From IMG/VR virus record IMGVR_UViG_3300029448_000014, positions 9,052-73,051 of that record: 64,000 nt of DNA; one strand, given 5' to 3'. The position numbers and the translations under genes were made by a program. Source of the DNA: a virus. Below, piece after piece: positions 2,568 through 34,118 of this stretch. The first letter of the stretch is position 1. Every line of letters starts with the position of its first letter. The notes under the pieces were generated by a model that worked only from the letters and a program-made list of their open reading frames with translations, had not been told where the DNA came from and did no database searches.

Positions 2568-2963
2568 ATGAGACATATGGATTACGATGAGTTCAAGAAA
2601 GAATATAAAACATATATGGAAAATGATATGTGGAATTTCAACCAAGAGGAAGATTCTATTGAGCCTGAAGGTGTTTCGAGACTTACTGATTTTTTAGAGC
2701 GTCGTAACAAAGTAGTTTCATTATCTAAAAACTATACAAGTCCAAACGATATGGTCAACAGTCCTGCACACTACACTCGTGGTAGTCAAGAGGTTATTGA
2801 CATTATCGAGCAAGCTATCAGTGACGCACCCAGTAATACAGAAGGGTATTTACAGGGGCAAGCACTGAAGTATTTACTTCGTGTTTGGCTGAAGGATAAT
2901 CCGAAACAAGATTGTGAAAAAGCTATGTGGTATATGAATCGATTAATTGATAAGCTCGACTAA
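2568..2963 (+). CDS. DUF3310-like phage protein
   Basis: DMVNSPAHYT...EVIDII...GQALKYLLR...DCEKAMWY signature. Confidence 0.85.
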   Translation: MRHMDYDEFKKEYKTYMENDMWNFNQEEDSIEPEGVSRLTDFLERRNKVVSLSKNYTSPNDMVNSPAHYTRGSQEVIDIIEQAISDAPSNTEGYLQGQALKYLLRVWLKDNPKQDCEKAMWYMNRLIDKLD

Positions 2964-2984
2964 GACAGTGCCGGCGTTAGCCGG

Positions 2985-3404
2985 CTAACATCGTTGAAAG
3001 TATAGATTACCATCAGCATGTGAGAGAGATTCGAACTCTTGAATATGGGGGCTAATTTTTTCTAATACAGTTTTAGTGTCTATAGAGGCGTGTCGAAAGG
3101 TACATGCATAACCCTCGGCAAAAGGGTGATGCTCGTGTATTGGTATGTACCACATTAAAGGTATTAAACAATCCCATAGTTCTAGGCCTTGCGATGCCCA
3201 GCAATTAAGCTCTTCCAATCGAGCCGCTGTTTTGATGATATGGGCTTCGTGAGCTTCAGTTTCAGGTAGAAACAGTTCTTGGTAGGGAGATACAAGAGCA
3301 TGTCTCCACATAATTGTCCCATCCCGATGTATTAGCCGGGAGTGATGCACTTGATTTCCAGAAGGTAAAGTGTAAAAAGAAGAAGCTACGAGATGCTTAA
3401 CCAT
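2985..3404 (-). CDS. hypothetical protein resembling a degenerate peptidase M15A
   Basis: LPETEAHEAHIIKTAARLEEL...WYIP...GYACTF resembles cyanobacterial M15A (IPET..NIIKxARRLEE..SWYRP..HxxGxAxDF); metal ligands absent. Confidence 0.55.
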   Translation of the reverse strand: MVKHLVASSFYTLPSGNQVHHSRLIHRDGTIMWRHALVSPYQELFLPETEAHEAHIIKTAARLEELNCWASQGLELWDCLIPLMWYIPIHEHHPFAEGYACTFRHASIDTKTVLEKISPHIQEFESLSHADGNLYFQRC

Positions 3405-9927: not shown

Positions 9928-10018
9928 TTTTTCAAATCACCTTTCTTTGAAGCGTTTCCAGAGCGTTAATCGCTTCAGCTACACTCATTAAAAAAGCCGG
10001 TGCTAACCGGCAGTATTA

Positions 10019-17771: not shown

Positions 17772-17846
17772 TTTATTTTTAGATAGGTTGAACGACTGCC
17801 CCTTAAGGGGCATTAATGTAAACAGCCGGCGTTAGCCGGCATAGGG

Positions 17847-18017
17847 TTATACGGTTGGCGTTAACTCACCAGCAAGCTCAGCTTGTTTGGCAACAGCTAA
17901 ACACTCAATGATTTTCCAGACCATTTCACCAGATAACTGATGAAGATCACATGCATACTCAATCGTGTCTTCGATCACCTCGGTGAGTTCGTTCAACACG
18001 TCTGAAGAAATTTTCAT
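17847..18017 (-). CDS. small acidic cyanophage protein, 56 aa (MKISSDVLNELTEVIEDTIEYACD...SGEMVW)
   Basis: Translated manually; bracketed by two hairpin repeats. Confidence 0.65.
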   Translation of the reverse strand: MKISSDVLNELTEVIEDTIEYACDLHQLSGEMVWKIIECLAVAKQAELAGELTPTV

Positions 18018-18130
18018 TTAGCTCAAGATATAATTTGCTTTAGCCCTTTCGGACACTTTTAACTATAGCCGGCATTTGCCGGCCATGGGCTGCTACTTTG
18101 ATGAATTAAATATTAAGTATCAGCTAGTTG

Positions 18131-18983: not shown

Positions 18984-19370
18984 GTGAAGACCTGCAGTAT
19001 ATGCAGGCAATCGTTGTCAGAAGATAAATTCCACAAGAGAACTTATAAGACTGGAAAGATTGGCCTGCAAGCAAAGTGTAAATCATGTTGCACTAAAGTG
19101 CGACGAGAAAAATACTACAAGCCTCATTCGTCTATAAGACTAAAGCTAAAGCTTAGTCAAAGTGAAGTAGATGAATTGCTAGCTCCAGGTAAATGTCAAT
19201 GTTGTGGCGCTAAAGATAGAAAACTATGCATAGACCACAATCACGACACTGAAAAACCTAGAGGCTTACTGTGTCACAACTGCAACACTGCTCTAGGTCT
19301 GTTAGGAGATAACGTTGAAACTATCCTATCGCTCAGCCGATACTTGGCGCAACGAGAGCCACTGGTGTAG
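18984..19370 (+). CDS. endonuclease VII-family free-standing homing endonuclease (F-CphI-like)
   Basis: CSIC..CKSC finger plus [22 protein letters not shown]; convergent with psbA and overlapping its 3' end. Confidence 0.85.
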
Positions 19371-21253: not shown

Positions 21254-22225
21254 TCACGCAGTGACTAAGTCACGTGCAACAGCAAAAGCACGCTTGCTAA
21301 TCTGTGCTCCAGCACCGAAAGTGCCACGTGCAAACTGAGCGCGACCCTTGGCAGCTGTAGTGCCACGAGTGCTTGTTTCTACCTGGGTGATGGCATTAAT
21401 ACCATTCCAGAGACTATCTGGTGCGTAAGCAATAGCGCCGTAGCCTTGTTGAAAGGCACGCTCAAGCGCTTGACGTTTACGGAAGACTTGACCTTCGTCA
21501 ATATTGTAAACCTCGTCAAGAAATTCGTTGAATTGATTGAGGTTCATAGCTTCACGAGAAAACTCACGCATCAAGTCACACTCAGTCACAAAGTCTTGAC
21601 GTGCTACATCAATACTCTCAATAAGAGCATCAAAGTTGTTGTTAGCACCATTCTTGTGAGTGATGCTGGAGTGCGCACCGCTCTCACCAAGTGCTGCAGT
21701 CAGTGTGTTCTGACAGACAACACGGATGTTGGTGAACTTTGCGCCACAGCCAGTCTTGCCGTCGTGTCCTAAGTAACCGACGATGCGACGTTTTACTGTG
21801 TCACCAGGGACGATGTCCGTCTCCGCACCACGGAGTGTGGCGGTAAAGCAGACTTTGGCACCATCCGATAAAACGATGACGCAGTCCATGTCTGCCTCTT
21901 CGCGGATGAACTCAGCCATCCGAAGGAGCGAATCGTTTTGGACGATTTCGTATTGCTTGGAGACGATACCGAGCAAAGCTTGGGTGTCAGTGCGGACAAC
22001 TCCGAATGTACCTGTTGGACGAAACTCGTCGGAAGGGAATTCGTCTTCGTTGTAGGCAGCTGAGACAGTGATTGGTAGTTGAAGCTCTCGCTTCTCGACA
22101 GTAAAGAGTGCGTCTGCAGTTTCAAACGCTTCTCGCGCCGGAAGTGTGCCTGTTGTGACGACACCCATGCCGTGCCAAGCCTGTTCCGAGTTGCCGAGCC
22201 AGCCAGATGTGAAGTTTGAGGACAT
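21254..22225 (-). CDS. DUF932 / TIGR03299-like phage protein
   Basis: AWHGMG, VRTDT..LGIVSKQYEIVQN, HDG, IRVVCQNTL, LWNGINAIT. Confidence 0.85.
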   Translation of the reverse strand: MSSNFTSGWLGNSEQAWHGMGVVTTGTLPAREAFETADALFTVEKRELQLPITVSAAYNEDEFPSDEFRPTGTFGVVRTDTQALLGIVSKQYEIVQNDSLLRMAEFIREEADMDCVIVLSDGAKVCFTATLRGAETDIVPGDTVKRRIVGYLGHDGKTGCGAKFTNIRVVCQNTLTAALGESGAHSSITHKNGANNNFDALIESIDVARQDFVTECDLMREFSREAMNLNQFNEFLDEVYNIDEGQVFRKRQALERAFQQGYGAIAYAPDSLWNGINAITQVETSTRGTTAAKGRAQFARGTFGAGAQISKRAFAVARDLVTA

Positions 22226-22262
22226 AGGATTAGATCCATATATACGATTTACCCCGATTGGG

Positions 22263-22295
22263 GCACATAAAAAAAGAGCAGCCGTTAGGCCGCCC
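22263..22295 (-). terminator. intrinsic terminator-like hairpin with UAAC loop
   Basis: GCGGCC-UAAC-GGCUGC followed by U7 on the minus strand. Confidence 0.6.
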
Positions 22296-22354
22296 TTATT
22301 ATGTTGATTTCAGACTTACTTGTATCAATGAAATATCAAAATGTTCAGACATAT

Positions 22355-22744
22355 TTATTCATTAACACAGATAGGGGTGTATTTTGATGCTTTATCGGAT
22401 ACTTCCCAGGTTCCGTTATATGCCCCAACTCGACAGGCAGTTTGGTGCTTACAGCAGAAGCAGCCGTGTCCGTAACATTCTTTAGATAAGCGCTTATCTT
22501 TTGCAATGCCCTTTATTTGAAATAAAGAACTTATGTACCCACAGCAAAGAGAATGCTTTTGAACATAGGAACGCATCGCTTCATACATGACTTCTGACAT
22601 AGTCACACCAAAAGCATTGGCATAGTCTTTGAGCATACTGTGACATTGGTCAGGCATTTGAACTTGCAGTTTTTTCAAGTCATTTCCAAAAAGGTATAGT
22701 CGGATTCTAATTACATTGATAAGTAAATTTGCGCAGTAAGACAC
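22355..22744 (-). CDS. ribbon-helix-helix protein with Cys-rich C-terminal domain (true start probably ~22678)
   Basis: KKLQVQMPDQCHSMLKDYANAFGVTMSEVMYEAM RHH pattern; CCG, CYGHGCFCCKH, CRVG. Confidence 0.65.
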   Translation of the reverse strand: MSYCANLLINVIRIRLYLFGNDLKKLQVQMPDQCHSMLKDYANAFGVTMSEVMYEAMRSYVQKHSLCCGYISSLFQIKGIAKDKRLSKECYGHGCFCCKHQTACRVGAYNGTWEVSDKASKYTPICVNE

Positions 22745-22774
22745 CGAATGGAAACATTTAAGTTACCTTAAGTT

Positions 22775-22933
22775 TTAATGTGAATCAATTTCTACATTTT
22801 GCTGTAAATACATTTCAATAGCATTTGCCATGACATCGTTCATTGTGACATTGATTTGAGCTGCATGAATTTTTAATTTCAAGTGAGTTTCCGTGTCTAG
22901 AAGAACCGTAACTCGTTTTTTAGGCGACATCAT
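22775..22933 (-). CDS. ribbon-helix-helix (CopG/ParG-like) protein, 52 aa
   Basis: Translated manually: MMSPKKRVTVLLDTETHLKLKIHAAQINVTMNDVMANAIEMYL... Confidence 0.75.
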   Translation of the reverse strand: MMSPKKRVTVLLDTETHLKLKIHAAQINVTMNDVMANAIEMYLQQNVEIDSH

Positions 22934-22983
22934 GAGATTCATGTGCCCACACTATAGGGGATTTGCTTAACAAAACTACAGAT

Positions 22984-23197
22984 CACTGTAAAAATGTTTT
23001 TACAGTGCGTTTTTGCCACGTTACTGCTGTGGTTTCTAGATCCATTGCAATGACTGCAATTCAGGCAATAATTTAGGCAAAAACCACGTTTGCCACATTC
23101 GATTCTCTATATACTTCTTTTTTAATACATAGTCCTTTCTATAGACTATTTATTTTGCAGTTTATAGTAAGTAGTGCAGCAAGCGTGGTTTTGTAGT
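22984..23197. promoter_or_regulatory. origin-like element A (inverted CCAC iterons around an AT-rich core)
   Basis: 11-bp perfect IR at 22984-23007; AAAACCACGTTTGCCACA vs TGCAGCAAGCGTGGTTTT imperfect IR; AT-rich centre. Confidence 0.5.
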
Positions 23198-23208
23198 TTA
23201 GATGGAAA

Positions 23209-23757
23209 TTAAGTCCTATTGCTAGGGACAAGCATATTGCCAAGATTTAATTTATAATTATCAGCAAAGGATTGCGCCTCTTTGTTTTTGTCAGGCTTAT
23301 TTATATATGACTTTCTATTTTCTTGTAAATTAGAACCATACTGCTGATCAAAGTTATCTTTTACTGATTCATCGCCAAAAATATAATTACCTTTGTAGGG
23401 AAGAACTTTTCTTTCATAGGCATCTGTATAAGCATTAGCCTCTGCTGCCCGTTCAGATAGCTTGACAGGTAATTCAGGTTCAGGTTCAGGTGTAGGTTTA
23501 GGAGCTACAGGTTCAGGAGCTGGCGGAGCAGGAGCAGGGGGGGCTGCCTGATAAATAGGCATGTCAAATGTTCTTTCTTGGTTAGCGGATCGTTTCCATC
23601 CATCGATACGGATCGGCTCGTAGCCAGTAAGGTTACGTCCTTCTGCTTTTGCCTTTTTATCCGCTTCAGACTTTTGCCGACTTAAGTCTTGTAAAATTAC
23701 ATGTAAATCTCTCCCAGTGTTCTCTTTGCTACCATCTGCGTAATAAAGAGTTGCCAT
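23209..23757 (-). CDS. hypothetical protein, paralogue A (Pro-rich linker)
   Basis: Shares PELPVKLSERAAxANAYTDAYERKVLPYKGNYIFGDESV with the next ORF. Confidence 0.8.
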   Translation of the reverse strand: MATLYYADGSKENTGRDLHVILQDLSRQKSEADKKAKAEGRNLTGYEPIRIDGWKRSANQERTFDMPIYQAAPPAPAPPAPEPVAPKPTPEPEPELPVKLSERAAEANAYTDAYERKVLPYKGNYIFGDESVKDNFDQQYGSNLQENRKSYINKPDKNKEAQSFADNYKLNLGNMLVPSNRT

Positions 23758-23809
23758 CAGCTTATCCTGCTAATAAAAAGTGTAGATTAATCTTACTTCC
23801 TATTTTAAC

Positions 23810-24388
23810 TTAGTATTCACCAAGTTTAAGAGAGTAATCAAGCTTTTCCCTATCGTTAGCTTTAATTTCTTTAGCTTTATCGTCAAGAATGTTTGGATTC
23901 TTTGTTTTTAGTTCGTTTGTAAGGTTAGTTTGGTATTGATTCTTAAAATTCTGCTCAACTGATTCATCACCAAAAATATAATTACCTTTATATGGAAGAA
24001 CCTTTCTTTCATATGCATCTGTATAAGCATTAGCATCAGCTGCTCGTTCGGATAGTTTGACAGGTAATTCAGGTTTAGGTTCAGGCGTAGGTTCTGGAGT
24101 AGGTGCTGGTTCAGGGGCTGGAGTAGAAGCAGGTTCAGGTTGTGGGATTTTATAAATAGGAATAACTTCATCGTAGTCATTGTCATCTATTCCGCCTGAG
24201 CCCCAATCGTCGAATGTAAATGCAGGTTTAGCACCACCGTGTGGCTGGTATAGTGTATATTGTTCTGGATTTTTTTGAGCAGCAGTTATATGTTTCAAGT
24301 CTTCTGTTCGGCCATACTTAGCGTCATGCTTCGCGTGCGTTGTACGTGTTCCCCATTGATAGTCATTAATGCCAAAAAGGTCAGCCAT
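23810..24388 (-). CDS. hypothetical protein, paralogue B (Pro-rich linker)
   Basis: Same shared segment; duplicated upstream region. Confidence 0.8.
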   Translation of the reverse strand: MADLFGINDYQWGTRTTHAKHDAKYGRTEDLKHITAAQKNPEQYTLYQPHGGAKPAFTFDDWGSGGIDDNDYDEVIPIYKIPQPEPASTPAPEPAPTPEPTPEPKPELPVKLSERAADANAYTDAYERKVLPYKGNYIFGDESVEQNFKNQYQTNLTNELKTKNPNILDDKAKEIKANDREKLDYSLKLGEY

Positions 24389-24464
24389 AGTATTTCACTT
24401 TGCTAGTAAAAAGTGTAGATTAATCCCAATTCCTATATTAACTTAGTATTTAAGCAAAGTGATA

Positions 24465-24535
24465 CGAGACATACCAGATTCGAACTGGTACAAACTGCGA
24501 ATAGGCAGTCGTGATAGCCATTTCACTAATGTCCC
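24465..24535 (-). tRNA. atypical tRNA with 6-nt anticodon loop (CUAUUC); identity uncertain, possibly Asn-derived
   Basis: Acceptor GGGACAT/ATGTCTC, D arm GTGA/TCAC with TGG, anticodon stem ACTGC/GCAGT, T arm ACCAG-TTCGAAT-CTGGT, G discriminator, no encoded CCA. Confidence 0.75.
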
Positions 24536-24538
24536 AAT

Positions 24539-24591
24539 AAGAAATGGGGAGGAATTGCACCTCCCCTAGTTTCAGCTATCTGTCATCTCTT
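24539..24591 (-). ncRNA. mini tRNA-like element (acceptor stem plus T-arm-like hairpin)
   Basis: AAGAGAT...ATTTCTT pairing around GGGGAGG-TGCAATT-CCTCCCC; ends 3 nt before the tRNA. Confidence 0.45.
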
Positions 24592-24808
24592 AGTTAAGGT
24601 GACTTTCTAAAGTTTGCAAAATATCGCGCATGGTTGCACGTGCAAAGCCATTAGCACCTATAACAGATTCTGTTGGTTCAGTTTTAGTATGGTAAAGCTC
24701 ATATTTCGTTAAAAAACGAGCTTTTTCACAGTATGTTGCTGATTCATCTAGCTGCATGATGAGTTTCTCAACAAGTGGTCGAGAGATACGAATCATCTCT
24801 GGTTCCAT
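24590..24808 (-). CDS. hypothetical protein
   Basis: 72 aa ORF downstream of a hairpin repeat. Confidence 0.65.
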   Translation of the reverse strand: MEPEMIRISRPLVEKLIMQLDESATYCEKARFLTKYELYHTKTEPTESVIGANGFARATMRDILQTLESHLN

Positions 24809-25101
24809 GGCTGTTACCTGATGTTGGACACAAATATCGAACCCCGGCGTTAGCCGGGTAAAGCTACTAAATTTGTGTACTTAATCAATGGAAAATTAAT
24901 GAGGCAGTGATACAGCCTACAGAAAAGCCTGAAAATAAGCTCAACACAATTGTAGTACTCATTAAATCAATAGCTGCTATTTATTTAATTTAGCGTTGAT
25001 TTTTGCCGCTTTCTTAAGTATTTTCTGCCCTGTTTTGCGATCAACACAGTGGGCAGCTAAATTCATTACTTTAATTAATTTTGCGTATTGTTTGGAGTAA
25101 T

Positions 25102-25626
25102 TCATAGACCATAAGCATAGGTTAATTCGGGGTGTTTATCCCAATATTCGTTGTTAGTATTCAGTTGAATAGTATCAACACCCTGTAGTTCAGCACCACG
25201 GATATTGGCTGGTGAATCATCAAACAATGTACCGACCATGCGGTATTTCTGTTGCAAGTATTGAATCATTGCCTGCTTAACAACACTAGAGGTTTCACCT
25301 TCGGTACTAAGTAAGAGTACGTCAAAGGGTATGTTGTTTCGCTGTAGCCATTCAAAGGTTTCAGGTAAACGACTTGAAGGCCTTGCAGTTGCAATAGCAA
25401 TGGCGTCACCAAAGCTGTGCAGCATTTGAACTAACTCAACCATAACGTTATTTGCTGGAAAATTACGCGAGGCATCAAAGAACAAGTCTTTAGTCATGCC
25501 AGCGTTGTTAAATCCAGCAGGTTTACAAGTAAGAGTGTCATCAACATCAATTACGTGCACGACTTGATCCTTAGAGGGATCAGTCATTGAAAGTCCTGTG
25601 AACAGGTCGCTTCCGATTGTATTCAT
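25102..25626 (-). CDS. HAD-family phosphatase (resembles the polynucleotide kinase 3'-phosphatase domain)
   Basis: IDVDDTL, ATAR, conserved K, FDDSPANI. Confidence 0.85.
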   Translation of the reverse strand: MNTIGSDLFTGLSMTDPSKDQVVHVIDVDDTLTCKPAGFNNAGMTKDLFFDASRNFPANNVMVELVQMLHSFGDAIAIATARPSSRLPETFEWLQRNNIPFDVLLLSTEGETSSVVKQAMIQYLQQKYRMVGTLFDDSPANIRGAELQGVDTIQLNTNNEYWDKHPELTYAYGL

Positions 25627-25819
25627 AAATAAATTTCAAAGTTCATTGAGATTAACAGCCGGAGTTATTCGGCATTGACTGTTCTTAGACGACATAAATG
25701 CCTTTGCTTACTAATAAGCAAGCGTCTTAATTTGTTTTAGTTAGTTATACAAACTATCTAAAATAAAGAGGTAAGTAAGTAATACCTAGATGAATAAATA
25801 GTCATAGGTATGTGTATGG

Positions 25820-26983
25820 GTGCAGATCAATCCTGGGTATAGAAGTAATTTGTCCAATAGGGAAATTGCTCGTATCAATACGTTATCTCCAACAAAAAGG
25901 GCTCAGATTCGGCATAGTTTGCAATATTCAAACAATGATGCGCTTGATGATTTATTGCGTAATTACGCTGGTGGAACAGATGATCCTGTGATTCAATTAT
26001 TGTTAGATCAAGAATTTAAGGACGCAATAGTTCACGGTGCTTCTGGTGAAGGATATAGGTATCAAGATACTAAGCCTGGAACAAGAGGCGAAGGTAATGG
26101 TAAATATCTATTGATGGCCGATAAACCTACGGATTACGGTCCTGAAGAGCAGGCTGCATTAGAAATTCTTGCATTAAGAAAAGAACTTGACTATGTACAG
26201 GGTGGAAGGATTGATCCTATTGACCCTGAAAGCGCCTTATACCAAATGATTGCTCGTCACAATGCTGCTAACATTAGGCCTACTTCAATTAAAGCAATAG
26301 GTGAAGGAGGCATTGATAAAGACAGAAGAATGCATCCTGATTTGCCACCTCAAACTCTTGCAAATGCTACTGTTGCAACTAATAACCAATTAATAGACAA
26401 TTTACTGGGTAACGAAAGGTACGAACAATCAATTACCGATGTAGATAAAAATGGTATTAGAAGCGGTATTCCAGTAGAGCATAAACTTTCATTTGATGGT
26501 CATGAAGCTTTAGGCAGGGAGCCAAGTAACAGAATGCTGGGAAGTACAGTTAAAAACAGTGTACTTAGATCAGAAGGTGATCCATACCGCCAGCAAATAT
26601 TGTTACTTAGAAAAGCTGCAGAACTTGAAGACGCTTTTAGATTAAATCATGGTAGAGATGTAAGGGAATATATGGTTGATAATGATTGGGATTATAAGCC
26701 TTATCAAACAGTTATGCCAAAGCTTGAGGATTTCGGTACAGTAGATAAAGGCGCAAGAAAGTTAACTTCTGACAAATCTATTATGAAATCCCCATTACGA
26801 ATGGCAGGTACTCGACCTGAAATGGTAAGACTTGCTTCTGGCAAACGTTACGAAAGCCCTGGAGAAAGTAAGGAGCGTGGCCTCTATGTGGATAGTGGCG
26901 GTGGTGATGTAACCATTGGAGAAGGCGCTCTTCGAAGCAATGGTAATGGCAACGGTAAGCGTAAGAATGGCAATGGCCACTAA
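25820..26983 (+). CDS. hypothetical protein, possible HNH-like motif
   Basis: 387 aa ORF; VEHKLSF...SNRMLGSTVKN; contains RMAG; NG-repeat tail. Confidence 0.7.
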   Translation: MQINPGYRSNLSNREIARINTLSPTKRAQIRHSLQYSNNDALDDLLRNYAGGTDDPVIQLLLDQEFKDAIVHGASGEGYRYQDTKPGTRGEGNGKYLLMADKPTDYGPEEQAALEILALRKELDYVQGGRIDPIDPESALYQMIARHNAANIRPTSIKAIGEGGIDKDRRMHPDLPPQTLANATVATNNQLIDNLLGNERYEQSITDVDKNGIRSGIPVEHKLSFDGHEALGREPSNRMLGSTVKNSVLRSEGDPYRQQILLLRKAAELEDAFRLNHGRDVREYMVDNDWDYKPYQTVMPKLEDFGTVDKGARKLTSDKSIMKSPLRMAGTRPEMVRLASGKRYESPGESKERGLYVDSGGGDVTIGEGALRSNGNGNGKRKNGNGH

Positions 26984-27007
26984 AGGCAAGGCTGTTTAAA
27001 TAAAAGT

Positions 27008-27035
27008 AAAAAAGCCTCCGGTGTTAACCGGAGGT
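27008..27035 (-). terminator. terminator-like member of the hairpin family
   Basis: CCTCCGGT-TAAC-ACCGGAGG plus U-tract between convergent genes. Confidence 0.65.
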
Positions 27036-27041
27036 GCAGGA

Positions 27042-27494
27042 TCAGAAGACGGGAGATTCGTCAATTACAGCTTCTGCTGGTTGAGCGTCTGCTGGTCGTA
27101 CAACAACGCCAGTCTTACGTACAGCATTCTCAACTTTGTCCTTAGGCATAGCACCTAAGCCACCAGTTGGGACTTGAACGTCAAGCATCTCAATTGTAGG
27201 ACGCTTAAGCATTACAACTTCACCTTGTGAGTTAGTGTATGTTTCTGCAATGGACTTGATATGTCCAGTGAGAGTAATCATACGACCTACAGGGAGTTTG
27301 CCATTGTTGTACAAGGCAAGCAAACCGTTGCTATTCAAGAACTTGATGTTTGCGCCTTCGTCATCATTCATAAAATTCGTGATGACAGTGACGGCGATAA
27401 ACTCTCCGTTCCGTCCATTCACCAAGTCAATGTTGCTAATGCGGCCATTGACGGTGAAAGTGTTAAATGCAGCGTAAGTTTTGTAGTCTGTCAA
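27042..27494 (-). CDS. SSB-like OB-fold protein
   Basis: FTVNGRI...VGRMITLTGHI; C-terminal DESPVF tail. Confidence 0.6.
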   Translation of the reverse strand: MTDYKTYAAFNTFTVNGRISNIDLVNGRNGEFIAVTVITNFMNDDEGANIKFLNSNGLLALYNNGKLPVGRMITLTGHIKSIAETYTNSQGEVVMLKRPTIEMLDVQVPTGGLGAMPKDKVENAVRKTGVVVRPADAQPAEAVIDESPVF

Positions 27495-27562
27495 GGTTGT
27501 TACCTGTTAGTTGGACATGAAAAAACACAACCGGTGTTAACCGGAAGTGTTGGGTTAGGGAT

Positions 27563-27802
27563 TTAGACTTGGGCTAAAAAAGCACCAGCGTCATGGATTT
27601 TCTCGCCAACAATGGCAAGTACAAGTCCGACGTTGTTAACGCCACCACGGCAGCGTTGACGTACTTCTTTCCAATCGACCTGCTTAATCCAGACAATAGT
27701 GTCTGATACAGGAGGGAAGCTTTTAAATGCACCTTCGTCAAGTGACCACTCAGGGTCGCCACTTACGATTCGTGCATTAGCTTCAAAGTCTGAACTAGTC
27801 AT
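27563..27802 (-). CDS. early hypothetical protein
   Basis: Between hairpin repeats; likely start MTSSDF. Confidence 0.65.
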   Translation of the reverse strand: MTSSDFEANARIVSGDPEWSLDEGAFKSFPPVSDTIVWIKQVDWKEVRQRCRGGVNNVGLVLAIVGEKIHDAGAFLAQV

Positions 27803-27967
27803 CAATTTATTGATTGAAGAACAAGAAAAAACACAGCCGGTGTTAACCGGCGTGTATTTCAAAGGTTTCTTCCATTGGTAAGAGTGGCAGCAAAGCCAAT
27901 CCACACAGTGGTGCTTCAAAATTAAGAGCTAAAGTTAGTGCAGCATAAAATGTGATTGCGATACGGT

Positions 27968-28330
27968 TCAAGAGACATTGCAATCGCAAGGGTCTTCACC
28001 GAGATCTACTTTATCGAGGCATGAATATGCTATATGAATAAGCTTTTCATCACCTGCCCATAGTAGGCAAGTATCATCTTTCTCACTAAACTTCTTGTCA
28101 GCTATAACATCGTGCCATGCACCTAAGTGACTAAGGATGCGAAGACCAAGAGCTTTTGCAGCAATTGGACCTGGATGATCTTCTTGAAGTGTTTCTATGA
28201 GTGCATCAATATATACATCTAAATCGACTTTAGCTCCGTCAGAAGTTTCTGCAGGGACAAAGTCTGGTTCAGCATCGACTTGAAGACTGAGCAGCTGATT
28301 TCGTGAAATGCTGTCAGGTATGAATGTCAT
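27968..28330 (-). CDS. early acidic hypothetical protein
   Basis: 120 aa ORF downstream of a hairpin repeat. Confidence 0.7.
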   Translation of the reverse strand: MTFIPDSISRNQLLSLQVDAEPDFVPAETSDGAKVDLDVYIDALIETLQEDHPGPIAAKALGLRILSHLGAWHDVIADKKFSEKDDTCLLWAGDEKLIHIAYSCLDKVDLGEDPCDCNVS

Positions 28331-28388
28331 TATTTATTGACTAAGAACATAAAAAACCAAGGCCGTCGTTAGATCGGCCAAGGTTGGA

Positions 28389-28556
28389 TTAAAACGGAAG
28401 GTGGACTATTCCACTCCCGTTATGTATGTACAACAAAGGTTCAATGTTGTGATTCTTACGAAGGGAGTGAGCTGCATGTGTAGCTAAGTCCTTATCTCCG
28501 TAAGGTAGTACATTTGTAGACCCACGGGGGGTCTTGTACTGCAGGTAGTAGGTCAT
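28389..28556 (-). CDS. early hypothetical protein
   Basis: Start MTYYLQY coupled to the upstream TGA; AGGAGG RBS. Confidence 0.65.
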   Translation of the reverse strand: MTYYLQYKTPRGSTNVLPYGDKDLATHAAHSLRKNHNIEPLLYIHNGSGIVHLPF

Positions 28557-28714
28557 CAAGGATGAGGCCTCCTGCATGTTCGAATGTCTTCGTCGTAGTC
28601 ATCATAAAGACTTTCAATCCACGCAAGATGGACTGCACGTCTATGCTCTACATTTTCGCGCCACTCAGAAGTACCGGGATGGTCTTCAGGATCTAGCGCA
28701 GGTTCATAAGCCAT
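28556..28714 (-). CDS. early hypothetical protein, 52 aa (MAYEPALDPEDHPG...)
   Basis: Translated manually. Confidence 0.55.
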   Translation of the reverse strand: MAYEPALDPEDHPGTSEWRENVEHRRAVHLAWIESLYDDYDEDIRTCRRPHP

Positions 28715-28748
28715 ATTAGATAAACAAAGGATATGAAGTTGTTACGCC

Positions 28749-28961
28749 TCAGACGAGGGATGTGCTCAATTGAGCCCAACCTGCATCGGAAATAAAGTTT
28801 CCGACGTTGTCTGTAAAGAGTGGAGCGGAACCATCTGGTAGGACGGCGCACTGTGCCTCTTCAGTGAGGTAGTTGTAAGCATCTTCGTTTAGAGGCATAA
28901 CCAACGAGAGTCCAGGAATAGCTGTGTTGCTAATGATCTGGAAGTCTGTGGTTACTGCCAT
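28749..28961 (-). CDS. early hypothetical protein
   Basis: 70 aa ORF downstream of a hairpin repeat. Confidence 0.65.
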   Translation of the reverse strand: MAVTTDFQIISNTAIPGLSLVMPLNEDAYNYLTEEAQCAVLPDGSAPLFTDNVGNFISDAGWAQLSTSLV

Positions 28962-29079
28962 TTAGGTTTTGAAGTTATAGAACATTAAAACCAACTCCCG
29001 GTATTAACCGGGAAGGCTGTGAGGTTGTTCAGGCTGTTATTTAGCAAACCTGCTTGTTTCTATTTATAGCACCTATTTC

Positions 29080-29202
29080 TTACTGGTATTTACCTGAGCC
29101 GGTCCTATTACGTGAGAATCCGTACATAAGGACAACAGCAGTTGAGGTAACCCCTATTAGCCCAATTACAGCGAGAATAATGTTTGATTCAGAGAAGATC
29201 AT
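29080..29202 (-). CDS. small membrane protein, 40 aa (MIFSESNIILAVIGLIGVTSTAVVLMYGFSRNRTGSGKYQ)
   Basis: Translated manually; single TM helix with basic tail; downstream of a hairpin repeat. Confidence 0.6.
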   Translation of the reverse strand: MIFSESNIILAVIGLIGVTSTAVVLMYGFSRNRTGSGKYQ

Positions 29203-29303
29203 GGTTATAGATTAAAGTTCGTTAAAACCTATGACCGGCGTTAGCTCGGCAAAGGTTGGTTTAGAGTTAGTTTGGGCACCTACTTGTTTCTATTACCGCA
29301 TTT

Positions 29304-29519
29304 TTATAAGCCCGCTACCCAACCGCTATTAATGCAGTTAGTAATGACTTGATGAGCTTCATCGTAGGTAATAATACCTTCGTGAGCGGCAATATTTAGC
29401 TCGACAGCTATTTCATAACAGATGTTAGAAGGCTCATGTTCAATGACAGGTATTTCTATGGGACTAGCAGTTACGGGAGCAACTATTAGCAATAGCCATA
29501 TACAAGGTAGAAGCATCAT
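29304..29519 (-). CDS. small secreted or membrane hypothetical protein
   Basis: Signal-peptide-like N-terminus, two Cys in the mature part. Confidence 0.6.
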   Translation of the reverse strand: MMLLPCIWLLLIVAPVTASPIEIPVIEHEPSNICYEIAVELNIAAHEGIITYDEAHQVITNCINSGWVAGL

Positions 29520-29598
29520 AGTGTTCTTTATAGTGGGTTCTTTATATTGTCTTAATGTCGCCTAACATTTACAATAGGCGTATGTACATCATACGAAT

Positions 29599-29964
29599 AT
29601 GCGACACAAATTAAGAGATAGAATAATGTCCGTCGGACGGAATATACGCAACTTCGATGATGCATACAGTCAAGAGATTGCGCAGATGTACGAAGGAGCT
29701 AATCCAGTCGTAAGAGCTGCCAGTTACATGGTAGGAGGAGCACATCCTTCATTTCGGAAAGGCGAATTGAGTAAAGGGATGGGTCCTGAAACACGTAGAG
29801 AGCAGATGCTACGTAACGCGATGGAGTACGGGGTACCAGCAATGAACGCTGTCCCCAAATACGTAGTACCAGTCGCCGGAGTGACGCTGGCAGGGAGGGG
29901 GTTGATTGATCTAACGAATGCGTTCACCAATCAACAGACCCCAAACACTGTTATGCCTGACTAG
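29599..29964 (+). CDS. hypothetical protein, late-type gene inside the early region
   Basis: 121 aa ORF; TACAAT 29 nt upstream. Confidence 0.7.
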   Translation: MRHKLRDRIMSVGRNIRNFDDAYSQEIAQMYEGANPVVRAASYMVGGAHPSFRKGELSKGMGPETRREQMLRNAMEYGVPAMNAVPKYVVPVAGVTLAGRGLIDLTNAFTNQQTPNTVMPD

Positions 29965-30060
29965 ACATAGCTACCAAGCATGTAAAAAAGAGCCCAGCGT
30001 TAGCCGGCCTCTTGTGAACTCCTAATCTTGAGTAAATTAGGAGACGATTAGAAATATGTC

Positions 30061-30318
30061 CTACGCAGCTACTGGTGGAGCAGCTTCTGTAGGAACAGTA
30101 ACCGTCTGCTTATCAGCATCGTTCTTCTTAGCTTTGTTAGCGTCTGCTTGACGAGCAAGAGACTTGGCATAGCTGAAGGAGCCACCAACGACAACACTGT
30201 CGATGGAGCCATCTTCTTGTTGAAGTCCAACGTCGAAAATGTCGTACTGAGAATCAGTAGTGCCGACACGCTCGAAAAGACGGACAGAAACATCTTGTCC
30301 AGGGATCTTGAAAATCAT
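30061..30318 (-). CDS. early hypothetical protein
   Basis: Between hairpin repeats. Confidence 0.65.
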   Translation of the reverse strand: MIFKIPGQDVSVRLFERVGTTDSQYDIFDVGLQQEDGSIDSVVVGGSFSYAKSLARQADANKAKKNDADKQTVTVPTEAAPPVAA

Positions 30319-30393
30319 ATGCTTAATAACGAAGTGAACTGCTCTGATAGAGCATAAAAACCATGCCCGGCATTAGCCGGGTAAGGTGGCTGT

Positions 30394-30684
30394 TCAAACA
30401 GAGAGCAGTTCAAGCTCTTGCTGTAGATGGCTAGGTAGCTCAGTAGACCATGGGTCATTGAGAAATACCTTCTTATGAATTGGCTTAGTAGGTACTAGTC
30501 CAGGTTCATAGCCATAGCTGATCCATGACTTGTAGCAAGAGCGAAGCTCAGCTAACGAAGCAAAGGCTTTACACGAAGGTTTGCAACCGCCAAAGGCGAA
30601 GAAGCAACCGTCGTCAGTCTGAACGAAACGCCAGACAGAAAGACCTTGCTTGGTCATTTTGGATACAACAGCTAAATTAGTCAT
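30394..30684 (-). CDS. early hypothetical protein
   Basis: Between hairpin repeats. Confidence 0.65.
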   Translation of the reverse strand: MTNLAVVSKMTKQGLSVWRFVQTDDGCFFAFGGCKPSCKAFASLAELRSCYKSWISYGYEPGLVPTKPIHKKVFLNDPWSTELPSHLQQELELLSV

Positions 30685-30799
30685 TTGAATTTATGAAAAG
30701 AACACTAATAAGAAAACCCGGCGTTAGCCGGGGTAGATAGTTAGGAACCTATCACCACCATCCAAAGGATGACAGTGAAGGTTAGTAAGAAATAGATGA

Positions 30800-30988
30800 T
30801 CAAAGGTACTTAATAGATACACAGTATTTAGTTGTGCCAGAAAAGCCACGTACAGATATCAATGTATGAGTAGTGGATTGAGCTTGACAATCACGTGAGG
30901 CAATCTCATTGTTCATTGCAGTAAGAGGAATGAGTGAGATAAATCCCATGGTGATGCCAAACAAGATGGCGGAGGAATACTTGAACAT
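30800..30988 (-). CDS. early small membrane protein
   Basis: N-terminal TM helix, two Cys. Confidence 0.6.
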   Translation of the reverse strand: MFKYSSAILFGITMGFISLIPLTAMNNEIASRDCQAQSTTHTLISVRGFSGTTKYCVSIKYL

Positions 30989-31044
30989 TAGTGAAAGCAA
31001 ATGATTACATAGAAATAGAAGCCCGGTATTTGCCGGGCAATGTG

Positions 31045-31221
31045 TCAGTTCCCGTTGAGGAACTCAGCAATTTCCCAGTCGTAGTCTGCTTCACAAGCGA
31101 AGTAGCGACCGTGGATGGTACAAGGAAATGTACGCTTAGTAGGAGACGTAGACTGATGAACTTCACGTTCAGTCATTCCAGTCTGCTGCATTATGTTAGT
31201 CACATAAGGATTAGTGGACAT
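31045..31221 (-). CDS. early hypothetical protein
   Basis: Start MSTNPY preceded by ATTAACTACT, shared with the neighbouring gene. Confidence 0.65.
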   Translation of the reverse strand: MSTNPYVTNIMQQTGMTEREVHQSTSPTKRTFPCTIHGRYFACEADYDWEIAEFLNGN

Positions 31222-31285
31222 AGTAGTTAATGAGATATAGAACAATAAAAAACACAACCGGCATTAGCCGGAGTGTTGGCAGTTG

Positions 31286-31468
31286 TTAGAAAGGGATGTC
31301 AGTGTCGTTGGGAGCAACTATCTTGTGGACACTGGTTTCAGCGTTTACATCTTCGTATGTAGCAGCATATGCATCTGCTTCATCGCGAGAGTTGAACTCG
31401 AAGTAGTTGTCCTCGGCGTAACCATCGTCACAGGACATGGTACTTACACGACACATGTAGATAAACAT
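31286..31468 (-). CDS. first gene of the left arm: small acidic protein ending in DTDIPF
   Basis: Start preceded by ATTAACTACT; SSB-like C-terminal tip. Confidence 0.65.
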   Translation of the reverse strand: MFIYMCRVSTMSCDDGYAEDNYFEFNSRDEADAYAATYEDVNAETSVHKIVAPNDTDIPF

Positions 31469-31519
31469 AGTAGTTAATTGATTAAGATCACAAGACATAG
31501 AGCCGTTGTTAAACGGCGA

Positions 31520-32200
31520 AGGGTTATGGATGTTCGGTAGGTGTGGTAGGAGAATATACTTATGGGTAACTGATTGAGACTAAGGATCACTTAAGAAACA
31601 CACAAGTATTGGGTAAATGTTGCAACGGAAGTAAGACTTAAGTTGCTAATTGCAATAACTTATGTGAACGCAAGATGGAAACGAAAGTTAATTCGTAAGA
31701 AAACTTATGCATGATACGAAATCGTATCGCAAAAGAATTAACTTGAGTTTACTTGCGTGAATCGTGAGTGAAATCGTAAGTGTAACTTACGGTTGATCGA
31801 ACAAATGCATACGTGAACGAGCGAAGCGAGTGAACAACTGTAGTTATACACTAACTTTTAATCGTAAGTGCAAACGGTTGTTATAACGGCTGTTCTTCCC
31901 TTTTTTTTGTTTGAGTAACCTGATGGGTAGTGAGTATATTAGACCAGTCGAGAAAATCATATTAATTTACGGTTCCTATAGGGTTTTTTGTCAATAAGCC
32001 GCGTGCGTATATAACTATAAAATATTTTTTCAACTTTTTTGCCGCCCATAGAAAGTTTCTTGCCAAAGACTCACGTGCTCTGCTTATTTGGCAAACGAAT
32101 GTTCGTCCACTACCTAACTCATACCGACTACGGATAAAGGCTGTGTTTTGATACCCACAAATTCCACAGATAGTGCATGTTTGCGCAATTTATTGGAGTC
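31520..32200. other. non-coding divergence region with iterated motifs and mini-hairpins (possible origin or genome terminus)
   Basis: No ORF of 60 aa or more; AATCGT(A/G)AGTG x3, hairpins at 31713-31728 and 31775-31791, GCGAAGC at 31821; coding-strand switch. Confidence 0.6.
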
Positions 32201-32210
32201 GAGCACTAAT

Positions 32211-32332
32211 AACCACGCAAACCACGGTAAAACACGTTAATCCCTATAAACCTATTCCGTTATTCCTCTCTCTGTACCCCTATTTAAAAATGCTCTTTAT
32301 AGAGAGTAGTGTGGTAAGTGTGGTTTTGTAGT
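32211..32332. promoter_or_regulatory. origin-like element B
   Basis: ACCAC repeats at 9-bp period, inverted GTGG repeats on the right arm; 31/37 nt identical to 23161-23197. Confidence 0.5.
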
Positions 32333-32365
32333 AGTTACTATTGAGTTGATAGAAGCGGCATCTCA

Positions 32366-32692
32366 ATGTTTAAAACTAGTGAAGACAGATGGAGAGATAG
32401 AAGCTTGCGATTAGCTTTCGGAGATGATATAGGATATGACGCTGCTAAAAATGCCCTAAAACAACGTTATGGTGTAGGGAAAATAGTAAAAGGACCATCT
32501 AATCCATCTGTAAGAATTCCTGATGGAAAAACTACGGAGATCGCAACACCAATTCAGTCAATACCTACTGCATATGCAGAAGAAACAGTAATGCCTGCCT
32601 ATTTGACTGCTGATACTAGAGAAAATACTGAGGCCGCACAAAAAGCACAAGCTGTTTTACGGCAATATCTTTCAACGATGAAGGATCGTTAA
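32366..32692 (+). CDS. hypothetical protein
   Basis: 108 aa ORF, TACTAT 30 nt upstream. Confidence 0.7.
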   Translation: MFKTSEDRWRDRSLRLAFGDDIGYDAAKNALKQRYGVGKIVKGPSNPSVRIPDGKTTEIATPIQSIPTAYAEETVMPAYLTADTRENTEAAQKAQAVLRQYLSTMKDR

Positions 32693-32718
32693 ACTAAAGG
32701 TACTGTAATATCAGATTA

Positions 32719-33009
32719 ATGCGTAACATAGCTGAAGAAAGTAGACAACGTAATTTCTTGAAGAGAAGTCGTCAGGAAATGATTGACAAGGCTATGTGTA
32801 AGCCTGGATATACCTGGAATGAAACTCTGAAGAGGTGCCTGCCTGCTTATGTCGGTGATATGGATAATGTAATCGAAATTCCAGAACAACCAATAGAAAA
32901 ACCTGTGCCGGAAACAATCGCGATGCCAAAATCAGAGATGCCACAACTTAAGGCTCCGGATAAGGCAATTGCTAAAGAAGTAAGTAAAAGGTCAATTAAA
33001 AAAAGATAA
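32719..33009 (+). CDS. hypothetical protein
   Basis: 96 aa; CKPGYTWNETLKRC motif. Confidence 0.7.
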   Translation: MRNIAEESRQRNFLKRSRQEMIDKAMCKPGYTWNETLKRCLPAYVGDMDNVIEIPEQPIEKPVPETIAMPKSEMPQLKAPDKAIAKEVSKRSIKKR

Positions 33010-33050
33010 AATGATTGTAGAATTAAGTTATTAAGACATTAAATTGAGCA

Positions 33051-34118
33051 ATGAATTCATACGGAAATGAACCGACCTTTCAGCAGCTTATTGCAAAAGG
33101 CCTTAATTATTATAATAATAATTTATACGGTGAGAATGGGGGATATTTCAACAAAATAAATCAAACGCCTGGGAAAAAATATTTAAATAAGGATGTAACT
33201 CTAAACAACGTTTATGGAAGTCTACCTTCAGACTATAAAAGAACTGAACTTTTGGCAAGAGGTGACATTTATGGAGCTCTACCTTCAGACTATAAATCAA
33301 CAGAATTAGCAACCCGTAATGTAACAAAAGATAGTGGCGCAAAAGGTACTCAAACCAGCCCTGGTCGTGGGATGAATATCATGTCTATGAAGAATGCTGA
33401 TGATTTGTATAAAGAGCTTGGACTAGGCCCATATCATCAGAATAATCCGTTTTCTCAAAAGCTTGATACTTCAAACACTAATTTCCCTACTGAACCAATC
33501 ACTGGCATTGATACAGGTGAGATGGGAGATTATATGGGACCGGCTAGCACTAATTTTTTCAATAATGAAGCTGCATCAAATATTGAGGGAATCCCTACAG
33601 CAAAATTATTTTCTAAGGAATTAGATCTAGATATTGCTGACAAGCCTGAAACACAAAGGGAGCGTGCAAGGAGAGCGTTTCTTGACACCGATGAATCCAT
33701 GAAAGCGCTTCGTGCCCGTGACAGAGAATTAGGCATGATGTATGCAGGTGGAAACTATTATGAATTAGGAGATGACGGTGAATTCCAAAAAAATGCAGAT
33801 GGAAAAACAAACAAACCCCTTACTGCTGAAGAGTTTAAAGATAGATTTAAAAATAATTTAATTTCAAGTAAAGCATCAGAAAACCCCTTTGCTCAGCAAC
33901 CAGCTCCAGCCTCATTTGATACTGAATTTAATACTGAGAGAAAAGTTGATATCGGAACTACACAAGATCTCGGGAATCAATTTGACATGGAGAATGCGTT
34001 TGACTTTAATAATCCAGAAACTCCAAAATACAAAGATGAATATTTTAATGGTGAGATTGATTTAAGTAAAATACTAGGTGAAGATTTCAATAGAACCCCT
34101 TATATGAGATCCAAATAA
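33051..34118 (+). CDS. putative internal virion protein
   Basis: 355 aa, low complexity; 19-aa internal repeat YGxLPSDYKxTEL. Confidence 0.7.
   Translation: MNSYGNEPTFQQLIAKGLNYYNNNLYGENGGYFNKINQTPGKKYLNKDVTLNNVYGSLPSDYKRTELLARGDIYGALPSDYKSTELATRNVTKDSGAKGTQTSPGRGMNIMSMKNADDLYKELGLGPYHQNNPFSQKLDTSNTNFPTEPITGIDTGEMGDYMGPASTNFFNNEAASNIEGIPTAKLFSKELDLDIADKPETQRERARRAFLDTDESMKALRARDRELGMMYAGGNYYELGDDGEFQKNADGKTNKPLTAEEFKDRFKNNLISSKASENPFAQQPAPASFDTEFNTERKVDIGTTQDLGNQFDMENAFDFNNPETPKYKDEYFNGEIDLSKILGEDFNRTPYMRSK

Follow-up and report, generated by a model that had tools for sequence, protein, structure and literature searches.

In a 64,000-nucleotide (nt) stretch of viral DNA, comprising bases 9052-73051 of the 73,051-bp IMG/VR record IMGVR_UViG_3300029448_000014 (this stretch is called the window here, and the full record G000), we found a short hairpin cassette that is repeated 19 times on a single strand. 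We favour, with moderate confidence, the reading that this cassette is a stop-start gene junction, in which a terminator-type RNA hairpin is joined to a gene-head box that is not of the sigma70 type, and that it doubles as a seam for recombination. This reading draws on the structure, strand, geometry and modularity of the cassette, on its conservation across relatives and on the insertions and deletions (indels) located at it, all of which are directly observed. The window belongs to an S-EIV1-like marine cyanophage.

Positions below are those of the window, and the anatomy is read on the transcript-sense strand, which is the - strand. A search with CCGGYRTTARCCGG, allowing up to 2 mismatches, gave 17 matches where 0.66 were expected by chance, a number reached in 0 of 100 shuffles; 16 of them lie on the + strand between 2971 and 31516, and the single match on the - strand overlaps the copy at 2971. 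Three degenerate copies (22278, 25659 and 28362) were recognised by eye. The total of 19 copies, 14 of them in 24843-31517 and 5 elsewhere, agrees with the count of an earlier note on this DNA; all are on one strand within positions 1-31531. Upstream of the window, at G000:C1:6143, there is one more, the 20th. We also ran a covariance model, built from 54 copies in eight genomes, over the window with filters off. At E<=1 it gave 18 matches, 16 of them on the - strand (2962-31531) and two marginal ones on the + strand (E 0.78 and 0.84). The copies at 27018, 29235 and 29994 miss this threshold, being box-less or degenerate in the stem. The model found no match in 32.4-64 kb, in line with the absence of copies from the 32-64 kb arm that the earlier note had reported. 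Rfam searches, run at gathering score with the whole window and at E<=1 with 24500-32400, were both negative. The checks that the earlier note had proposed thus reveal neither a known Rfam family nor late-arm copies, and its observation therefore stands.

The copies have stems of 5-10 bp that enclose 4-nt loops, and usually a U-rich run follows. By hand count, the loops of the 19 window copies are UAAC (13), UAAU (3), AAAU (2) and UAGC (1), and the closing pairs C-G (11), U-A (6), A-U (1) and C.A (1). Beyond the U-run stands a box, TG(T/C)(T/C)C, whose T lies 13 nt after a 5-bp stem, that is, 20 nt from the hairpin axis. Fifteen copies head a gene on the same strand, and all of them have the box position and a start codon. 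The start codon follows 19-26 nt past the box in 12 of these and 35-41 nt past it in the other three (17826, 18069 and 30367), with a second small hairpin in between. Such a hairpin is opened by the box itself in four copies (17826, 18069, 22278 and 30367), as in GCCCC-UUAA-GGGGC or GCUCU-AUC-AGAGC (17797-17812, 22250-22265 and 30339-30352 on the - strand). The U-run and AUGUUC of the earlier note are real, and its distance of 30-50 nt before a start codon is refined to a box T 20 nt from the axis with the start mostly 19-26 nt later. No Shine-Dalgarno sequence is visible ahead of the cassette-headed genes.

Five copies have the hairpin without a box and without a downstream open reading frame (ORF): the one at G000:6143 and the four at convergent junctions (2971, 9997, 27018 and 29994), a setting that the earlier note had also given for four copies. 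Four of the five keep a strong U-run, and 2971 has none. The cassette is therefore modular, the hairpin and U-run going with the upstream gene and the box with the downstream one. A generic scan for intrinsic terminators over 22000-33500 gave 27 sites where 8.6 were expected, and 12 of these are family copies on the - strand; the weak exceptions among the 19 copies are 2971, 18069, 24844, 25659, 29235, 31023 and 31503. In all 12 copies that were folded, the minimum-energy fold contains the family hairpin (z-scores -1.6 to -5.5). Like intrinsic terminators, the cassette has a stem of 5-10 bp rich in GC, with a short loop and with a U-tract directly behind the stem, and it lies just past stop codons, oriented with transcription. 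It differs from them in adding a box in fixed register and a loop and closing pair that are conserved within a genome, and in keeping its hairpin at cluster heads where the U-run is broken.

The left half of the window carries, on the - strand, genes for DNA polymerase, primase-helicase and ribonucleotide reductase together with psbA, and the right half, on the + strand, genes for terminase, a portal-like protein and other virion proteins. The portal-like protein is 44% identical to its counterpart in Synechococcus phage S-EIVl, its sole match among 50,697 phage records, and relatives of it are encoded by more than 574 viral contigs. The early region of the phage was detected in 20 marine or aquatic metagenome runs from 9 studies, and no RNA data set was listed for 24000-32000. 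Megablast of the cassette region against cultured phages gave no match, and the phage collection that we searched holds no member of the cassette-bearing marine clade. For comparison we used seven long contigs (G001-G007) whose portal is 62-84% identical to that of the window.

At E<=0.1 the covariance model gave 85 matches in these relatives, 46 of which had served as model seeds; all 85 are on the sense strand and none is antisense. In S-EIVl no family member was found by pattern, by a de novo hairpin census or by the model. G002 has 21 copies of the same 14-mer on one strand. In G003 the 14-mer pattern occurs only 3 times, yet UAAC hairpins number 21 in sense against 3 in antisense, with at least nine different stems by hand count (for example GCAGGC, CCACUGGU, GGUUCUUCC/GGAAGAACC and GAUACUCUC/GAGAGUAUC). 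This census is not circular, and we estimate that about 0.3 perfect 5-bp stems would surround a given tetramer by chance. The hairpins of more distant relatives are different: GCCAGC-UUUC-GCUGGC in G004, GGACCC-UAAU-GGGUCC in G006, and GGCGUC-UAUC-GACGCC and GCCGC-UGACUC-GCGGC in G005 and G007. Loops are typical of a lineage (UAAC, UAUC, UUUC or UAAU) and stems differ between relatives, and G005 and G007 each hold at least six loop types (UAUC, AAUU, UGACUC, UAAC, UUAAUC, and UACC or UAGC). The seed alignment of 54 sequences has double changes in 6 of 6 stem pairs, with 97.5% of cells paired as compared with 60% in shuffled alignments and 29-51% with slid partners, the first figure being partly circular because seeds were selected for having a stem. 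Across these changes of stem the hairpin structure is preserved.

The box is kept across these changes. In all relatives except G003 it reads TGTTC(TTTAYAT), and its distance from the loop is 18 nt where the loop has 4 nt and 17 nt where the loop has 6 nt, independent of stem length; in G003 its position is mostly occupied by AGUAAAUUUAUAA. The second hairpin opened by the box recurs in G002, G004, G005 and G007 as TGCCC...GGGC. We collected 99 full-length model matches, 14 from the window and 85 from relatives, of which 93 have even-numbered loops and 80 have 4-nt loops. The loops among the 99 include UAAC (37), UAUC (15), UAAU (10), UGACUC (7), AAUU (5) and UUUC (5), and the closing pair is C-G in 68 and U-A in 19. 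Outside the stem, the most conserved positions of the 93 even-loop matches are two T's right after a 6-bp stem (82 and 88) and, in the box, T0 (78), G1 (74) and C4 (64); an ATG follows at +18 to +24 in 53 of the 93. Across the lineage, conservation is strongest in the box and not in the loop.

The early regions of G005 and G007, compared by blastn, show where genes come and go. By hand count, 8 of 22 internal boundaries of homology blocks fall within 30 nt of a cassette, where about 2 would be expected given that cassettes and their flanks make up about 8% of the compared region. Two extra single-gene segments in G005 (relative positions 1619-1772 and 4566-4778) have a cassette on each side, and G007 has a single cassette in their place. 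Looking in relatives for gene gain or loss at the repeats, as the earlier note had proposed, thus turned up indels at the cassettes. The early ORFs beside the cassettes are patchily conserved, and PHROGs and Pfam searches with 11 early ORFs returned one match only, to a PHROG of unknown function. We infer from this arrangement that the cassette is a recombination seam, with recombination as the presumed cause of the indels. As a separate observation, the assembly of G001 breaks exactly over the dense cluster, with contig ends (L113 and L116) corresponding to window positions 26325 and 31595; the cassette repeats probably hinder its assembly.

A scan for sigma70-type promoters over 22000-33500 found none inside any cassette, and 19 sites in the region where 29.2 were expected. 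Several identities that we tried for the box and its surroundings were rejected. The base counts of the box fit neither TAnnnT nor TTGACA in any register, which speaks against a -10 or -35 element of the sigma70 type, whichever way the box is oriented. A -10 element (TATTTN) in the U-rich spacer, with the start at TG, needs an A that is present in just 33 of 93 copies. A stand-alone box gives, by its weight matrix, many matches within coding sequence. An outer helix GAACA/UGUUC, tried as a general feature, occurs in 10 of 33 TGTTC cassettes and never compensates in 25 TGTCC/TGCCC boxes. The weight matrix yields one strong hairpin-less case only (+ strand, 29522, score 16.5). Here two tandem box-like sequences, TGTTCTTTATAG and GGTTCTTTATAT, lie at 29522-29550 on the strand opposite to the cassettes and without a hairpin. 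The - gene 29304-29519 has its start codon 3 nt away from them, and the + gene 29599-29964, which also has TTGTCT-17-TACAAT, begins 77 nt further on.

The phage does encode a sigma70-family factor of its own, at 50990-51931 (+) inside the virion-gene arm. It is full-length, with regions 1.2, 2, 3 and 4, and belongs to the cyanobacterial RpoD/SigA family (TIGR02997, cyano-RpoD, 390 bits). It is shared, at 74-83% identity, by all seven marine relatives, its best match in a cultured phage is below 42% identity, and no homologue was found in S-EIVl. Cassette and sigma gene therefore co-occur in 8 of 8 marine genomes and are both absent from S-EIVl, a comparison that is confounded by divergence. 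Compared with cyanobacterial SigA, the phage protein keeps the recognition residues of region 2.4 (WWIRQ..TR) and most of those of region 4.2 (R-D-R-V-R). We rejected it as the reader of the box on the ground that these canonical residues are kept. TTGACA-17-TATAGT stands ahead of its gene, and TATAAT-like boxes occur at several genes of the right arm; the factor probably reads ordinary promoters, for instance its own, rather than the box.

On the stop-start reading, the cassettes would be the gene junctions of the leftward arm, which holds the early and replication genes. The first part, a GC-rich hairpin of 5-10 bp with a UAAC or UAAU loop closed by C-G or U-A and followed by a U-run, would be a signal of the intrinsic-terminator type that ends or attenuates the message of the upstream gene and leaves a protective 3' hairpin on it. 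The second part, the box TG(T/C)(T/C)C(TTTAYAT), would mark the head of the next message, which would lack a Shine-Dalgarno sequence. Two origins of that head are conceivable: transcription may re-initiate at a start signal that is not of the sigma70 type, or an endonuclease may process a transcript that has read through. Since the T-run is common to both parts, they would be locked in register, and since the cassette is repeated it would offer a seam for homologous recombination by which single genes are gained or lost. The lack of sigma70 promoters amid serial terminator-like hairpins implies a need for a private start signal or else for read-through combined with processing. That transcription actually ends at the hairpins, and where the RNA 5' ends lie, we infer from these features; the sequence is compatible with either re-initiation or processing, and with a role as RNA alone or an additional one as DNA. 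The surroundings of the box (A at -2/-1, U at +2/+3) loosely fit the A-U clamp of cyanobacterial RNase E (PMC8682795).

The cassette would then be a compact, portable stop-start signal that seems to make nearly each early gene its own unit and that marks sites of gene swapping in widespread S-EIV1-like phages. A reader of the box would represent a new start signal for cyanobacterial RNA polymerase, a phage factor or a processing code, and the parts of the cassette could serve as insulators in cyanobacterial synthetic biology. A literature search at the level of listings, which did not extend to the original S-EIV1 paper and its supplements (where repeats might be mentioned), found no description of the element.

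The nearest functional analogue is the promoter-early stem-loop (PeSL) cassette of the T4-type myoviruses phi1/RB49, PST/T4 and nt-1/KVP40 (PMC2839356, PMC4122927). Both are short composite units of stop and start, repeated between small ORFans in an early, plastic part of the genome, and in both cases indels between close relatives are bounded by the repeats. The stem-loop of PeSLs acts as a terminator or attenuator, and by analogy the hairpin and U-run of the cassette would have the same role. A consensus sigma70 promoter (-35/-10) and a Shine-Dalgarno sequence are part of PeSLs, whereas the cassettes have neither, and the PeSL stem-loop varies in its position relative to the promoter, whereas the box stands rigidly 20 nt from the axis. 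PeSL hosts are T4-like myoviruses and the phage of the window is S-EIV1-like. The earlier suggestion of PeSL-like cassettes for gene shuffling thus holds for the way of working, by analogy, with a stop hairpin, a gene-head signal, ORFans and indels; it fails for membership because the defining sigma70 promoter is lacking and the phage lineage is another one. The cassette works like a PeSL and differs from it in box, promoter and lineage.

Several observations weigh against the stop-start reading. The box resembles neither a -10 nor a -35 element, and with a canonical phage sigma factor and a non-canonical box no reader of the box can be named. Within G000-G003 the loop is more conserved than the stem, for which plain termination has no need. 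Many spacers in G005-G007 read YTATTTCAYTG, with a longest U-run of 3 and hence a poor U-tract, and look more like conserved sequence than like a terminator tail. At the head of the dense cluster, the first copy has retained a perfect hairpin in each of 5 genomes despite a broken U-run (longest U-run 2, as against genome means of 3.2-4.2), and in G000, the one genome in which this was checked, nothing is encoded upstream of it; since the hairpin is kept there without a good U-run, it may also serve a start function. As regards recombination, near-identical populations in four metagenome runs from four studies are collinear over the cluster, and runs X2, X3, X5 and X8 contain no cassette-sized joint or indel within 24.4-32.2 kb. 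We give no weight to one X3 contig of low depth that joins 24269 to 31239. Variant contigs diverge at the hairpin edges 27851 (X3 and X5) and 24840 (X5), among the loose ends listed out of a set with 78 more, and we give these little weight.

It is possible, though unlikely, that the hairpin loop is bound by a phage or host RNA-binding protein, which could be an antiterminator, a translational repressor or an endoribonuclease guided by the hairpin to cut the spacer, with the loop type co-evolving with its protein in each lineage. Such a reader would explain why all 21 sense hairpins of G003 keep UAAC despite their differing stems and why each lineage has its own typical loop (UAAC, UUUC, UAUC or UAAU), and terminator-like hairpins between nearly all of about 14 consecutive genes call for some control of read-through. 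UAAC is a UNAC-type tetraloop with a GNRA-like fold (PMC5311481), which favours a loop-specific RNA reader; UAUC, UUUC and UAAU are not of the UNAC type. The loose fit of the box surroundings to the RNase E clamp would also suit an endonuclease, but that signature holds too little information for a box of 9-12 nt. A loop reader would moreover need to accept at least six loop types in G005 or G007, and four in the window itself, and no RNA-binding, antiterminator or nuclease family was found among the 11 early ORFs. The view that a conserved loop implies a specific reader is weakened accordingly, both by the loop types of G005 and by a box that is more conserved than the loop across the lineage. 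Antitermination of the boxB type in particular, one of the candidates listed earlier, is not supported. The nut sites of lambda combine a boxA with a 5-bp stem and a GNRA-like pentaloop, occur in few copies and are read by the arginine-rich N protein; the cassettes number about 20 and have 4-nt loops, and nothing resembling N was found among the 11 early ORFs.

We regard as rather unlikely an explanation at the level of DNA, in which a mini-hairpin of the GCGNNAGC type on the template strand extrudes from supercoiled DNA and, together with the box at 20 nt, makes up a promoter specific to the phage. Its reader, comparable to the N4 virion polymerase, would be a phage polymerase that has escaped recognition or a modified host polymerase, such as the core enzyme joined by a phage factor, and transcription would start about 20 nt away, giving short messages that lack a Shine-Dalgarno sequence or are nearly leaderless. 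The literature on N4 (PMC4496689) describes three hairpin-promoter copies (P1-P3) read by an injected, 3500-aa T7-like virion RNA polymerase, each with a 5-7 bp stem, a 3-nt loop and a sheared G.A closure, centred at -11, with conserved sequence ending at +1. Promoters of this type set the start of transcription at a constant distance from the hairpin and require supercoiling and SSB. Like them, the cassettes have a small GC hairpin ahead of early genes, with conserved loop letters and variable, paired stem letters, and a sheared G.A closure is possible on the template strand, where C-G-closed copies of the window clade read GCGTTAGC and those of G004 GCGAAAGC or CCGAAAGG. GCGNNAGC with GAAA and GTTA loops is described as extraordinarily stable 'mini-hairpin DNA', with the N4 promoter hairpin as an example (PMC13037366, PMC4496689). 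Template-strand GNNA is found in 57 of the 80 four-nt loops (GTTA 37, GATA 15, GAAA 5), the axis-to-box distance is rigid, and the hairpin at the cluster head, kept in 5 of 5 genomes, agrees with such a promoter as well.

Against this stand the 23 four-nt loops that are not GNNA (ATTA, AATT and ATTT among them) and the seven 6-nt loops that read GAGTCA. The cassettes also differ from N4 promoters in their 4-nt loops (80 of the 99 model matches, and a single one with 3 nt), their number (about 20), their U-runs, their box at a distance of 20 nt and the lack of a detectable polymerase, and the N4 geometry, in which a 3-nt loop is centred at -11 and the start lies about 8 nt after -8 (PMC4496689), would put the start inside the U-run here. 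A search for the T7/N4-type polymerase domain (PF00940) found none in G000, G002, G005 and G006 at E<=1, where a very diverged enzyme could escape, and recovered the P-SSP7 enzyme, as a positive control, at 2.7e-69. The largest shared ORFs without an assigned function have only 594-689 aa, the Protein Atlas offered no lead on the proteins of 689 and 594 aa, and the sole larger ORF (more than 1038 aa) is variable and repeat-like. The wobble-pair cases are as previously described: the template strand gives the better pairing for the copies at 25659 and 31023 and for three copies of relatives with CCGGTGTTAGCCGG, whereas the sense G.U pairs at 22278, 28998 and 29994 fit RNA terminators, as do the U-runs and the box-less convergent copies. 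The first non-Watson-Crick pair in 101 hairpins is G.U in 22 and A.C in 4, and is bridged by at least two further pairs in 12 and 0 of these, respectively, an excess that speaks for RNA, though weakly because the T-rich 3' flank biases the test; mismatches at the closing pair are balanced, with four sense C.A (CTAACA twice, CAAATA and CTAATA) against three G.U/U.G. If the DNA explanation were true, hairpin promoters, so far a feature of N4-like phages, would become a wider principle in a widespread ocean cyanophage lineage.

Quite improbable, in our view, is that the copies are plain intrinsic terminators which resemble each other through duplication and gene conversion, the downstream similarity being that of an AU-rich leader without a Shine-Dalgarno sequence. 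The 12 copies that pass the generic terminator scan agree with this, stems and loops form sub-families that appear to be groups of common descent, such as GCCGC-UGACUC-GCGGC of G005 and G007, and no more than 4 viral contigs contain the G000-type cassette in its exact form. However, the box and its 20-nt register persist across lineages that share neither stem nor loop, the conservation of its T0, G1 and C4 far exceeds what a leader requires, copies without a downstream gene have no box, and first copies retain the hairpin without a good U-run.

That the cassettes are RNase III processing sites of the T7 early-gene type, as had also been proposed, is hardly credible: T7 has such sites between consecutive early genes, a similar placement, and several copies here add a lower stem across an internal loop, but RNase III needs roughly two helical turns (about 20 bp of double-stranded RNA), whereas these helices have 5-10 bp, or at most about 15 pairs interrupted by internal loops when lower stems are included, and a conserved single-stranded box has no place in an RNase III site.

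The individual copies, all on the - strand, follow in the direction of transcription. The first (31475..31531; model), GCCGUU-UAAC-AACGGC with a broken U-run UCUAUGUC and the box TGATC, precedes the first leftward gene and follows about 870 nt of non-coding DNA. At 31229..31286 (model, fold) lies a full cassette, CCGGC-UAAU-GCCGG, with the lower stem AACAC/GUGUU, a U-run and the box TGTTCTATATC. The cassette at 30992..31051 (pattern; model E 0.11) has an AAAU loop, a closing C.A mismatch in the RNA (T.G on the template) and the box TGTAA. The top model match, at 50.9 bits, is the full cassette at 30689..30746 (model, fold), CCCGGC-UAAC-GCCGGG with UUUUCUUAUUAG and TGTTCTTTTCAT and an ATG 20 nt past the box. 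Another full cassette, at 30339..30395 (model), has a UAAU loop and a box TGCTC that opens GCUCU-AUC-AGAGC. The copy at 29981..30007 (pattern, terminator scan) is terminator-only, at a convergent junction, with CCGGC-UAAC-GCUGG (G.U in the RNA, A.C on the template) and UUUUUU and without a box. At 29213..29248 (pattern with 2 mismatches, below the model threshold) a degenerate cassette, CGAGC-UAAC-GCCGG with the box CGAAC, is followed by a short ORF of about 40 aa. Four full cassettes found by model and fold come next: UUCCCGGU-UAAU-ACCGGGAG at 28969..29026, whose box TGTTCTATAAC can pair with an upstream GAACA; the divergent, bulged stem GGCCGAUC-UAAC-GACGGCC at 28334..28392, with the lower stem AACC/GGUU, UUUUUU and the box TGTTC; GCCGGU-UAAC-ACCGGC at 27808..27865, with a lower stem, UUUUUU, the box TGTTC and an ATG 21 nt past it; and the copy at 27502..27559, with the lower stem AACAC/GUGUU, a U-run, the box TGTCC and a TTG start 23 nt past it.

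The terminator-only copy at 27015..27034 (pattern, terminator scan, fold), CCUCCGGU-UAAC-ACCGGAGG with CUUUUUU and no box, faces the + gene 25820-26983. This gene, a 387-aa ORF on the opposite strand amid the early cluster, has no family match and was found only in G001, and variant contigs diverge near its ends. The cassette at 25630..25687 (by eye, model) stands at a divergent junction; its stem CCGAA/UCCGG has an A.C mismatch in the RNA that is a G.T wobble on the template, and an ATG follows its box TGAAC at +19 nt. At 24815..24872 (pattern, model) the full cassette CCCGGC-UAAC-GCCGGG has a weak U-run, the box TGTCC and an ATG 22 nt past it. The full cassette at 22250..22307 (terminator scan, model, fold) has a 10-bp stem with 2 G.U pairs, a UAAC loop, 7 U and the box TGCCC with the hairpin GCCCC-AAUC-GGGGU. 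The full cassette at 18040..18097 (pattern, model) has the deviant loop AAAU, which is also present in G001, and the box TGTCC. The psbA gene (photosystem II D1) at 19333-20421 (-) lies in the replication arm, and the cassettes at 18069 and 22278 flank that part. At 17797..17854 (model, fold) a full cassette with a UAAC loop has a box TGCCC that opens GCCCC-UUAA-GGGGC and an ATG 41 nt past it. The two remaining copies are convergent-junction hairpins: GCCGGU-UAGC-ACCGGC with UUUUUU and no box at 9981..10011 (pattern; model E 0.0075, model positions 15-45 only), and GCCGGC-UAAC-GCCGGC at 2962..2985 (pattern; partial model match, E 0.37), which has no U-run, box or downstream gene on the same strand.

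The arms of the genome diverge from a non-coding stretch of about 870 bp (31517-32366). It is 85-88% identical to G001 and contains many short repeats of the type (T)TACGAT / CACGAT, and its part 32212-32332 recurs elsewhere in G001 and G002; it may be an origin or control region. At 24464-24536 (-) ARAGORN reports a tRNA-like gene with an irregular anticodon loop ('tRNA-???'), which adjoins a terminator-like hairpin outside the family (24546-24566) and within which, at 24503, variant contigs in two metagenome runs diverge. In the right arm, the portal-like ORF 47215-49467 (+) overlaps the next head-gene ORF, 48965-49999 (+), by about 500 nt in a different frame, and a NUMOD4/HNH homing-endonuclease-like gene at 53342-53713 (-) lies directly before a strongly conserved head gene of 382 aa (53820-54968).

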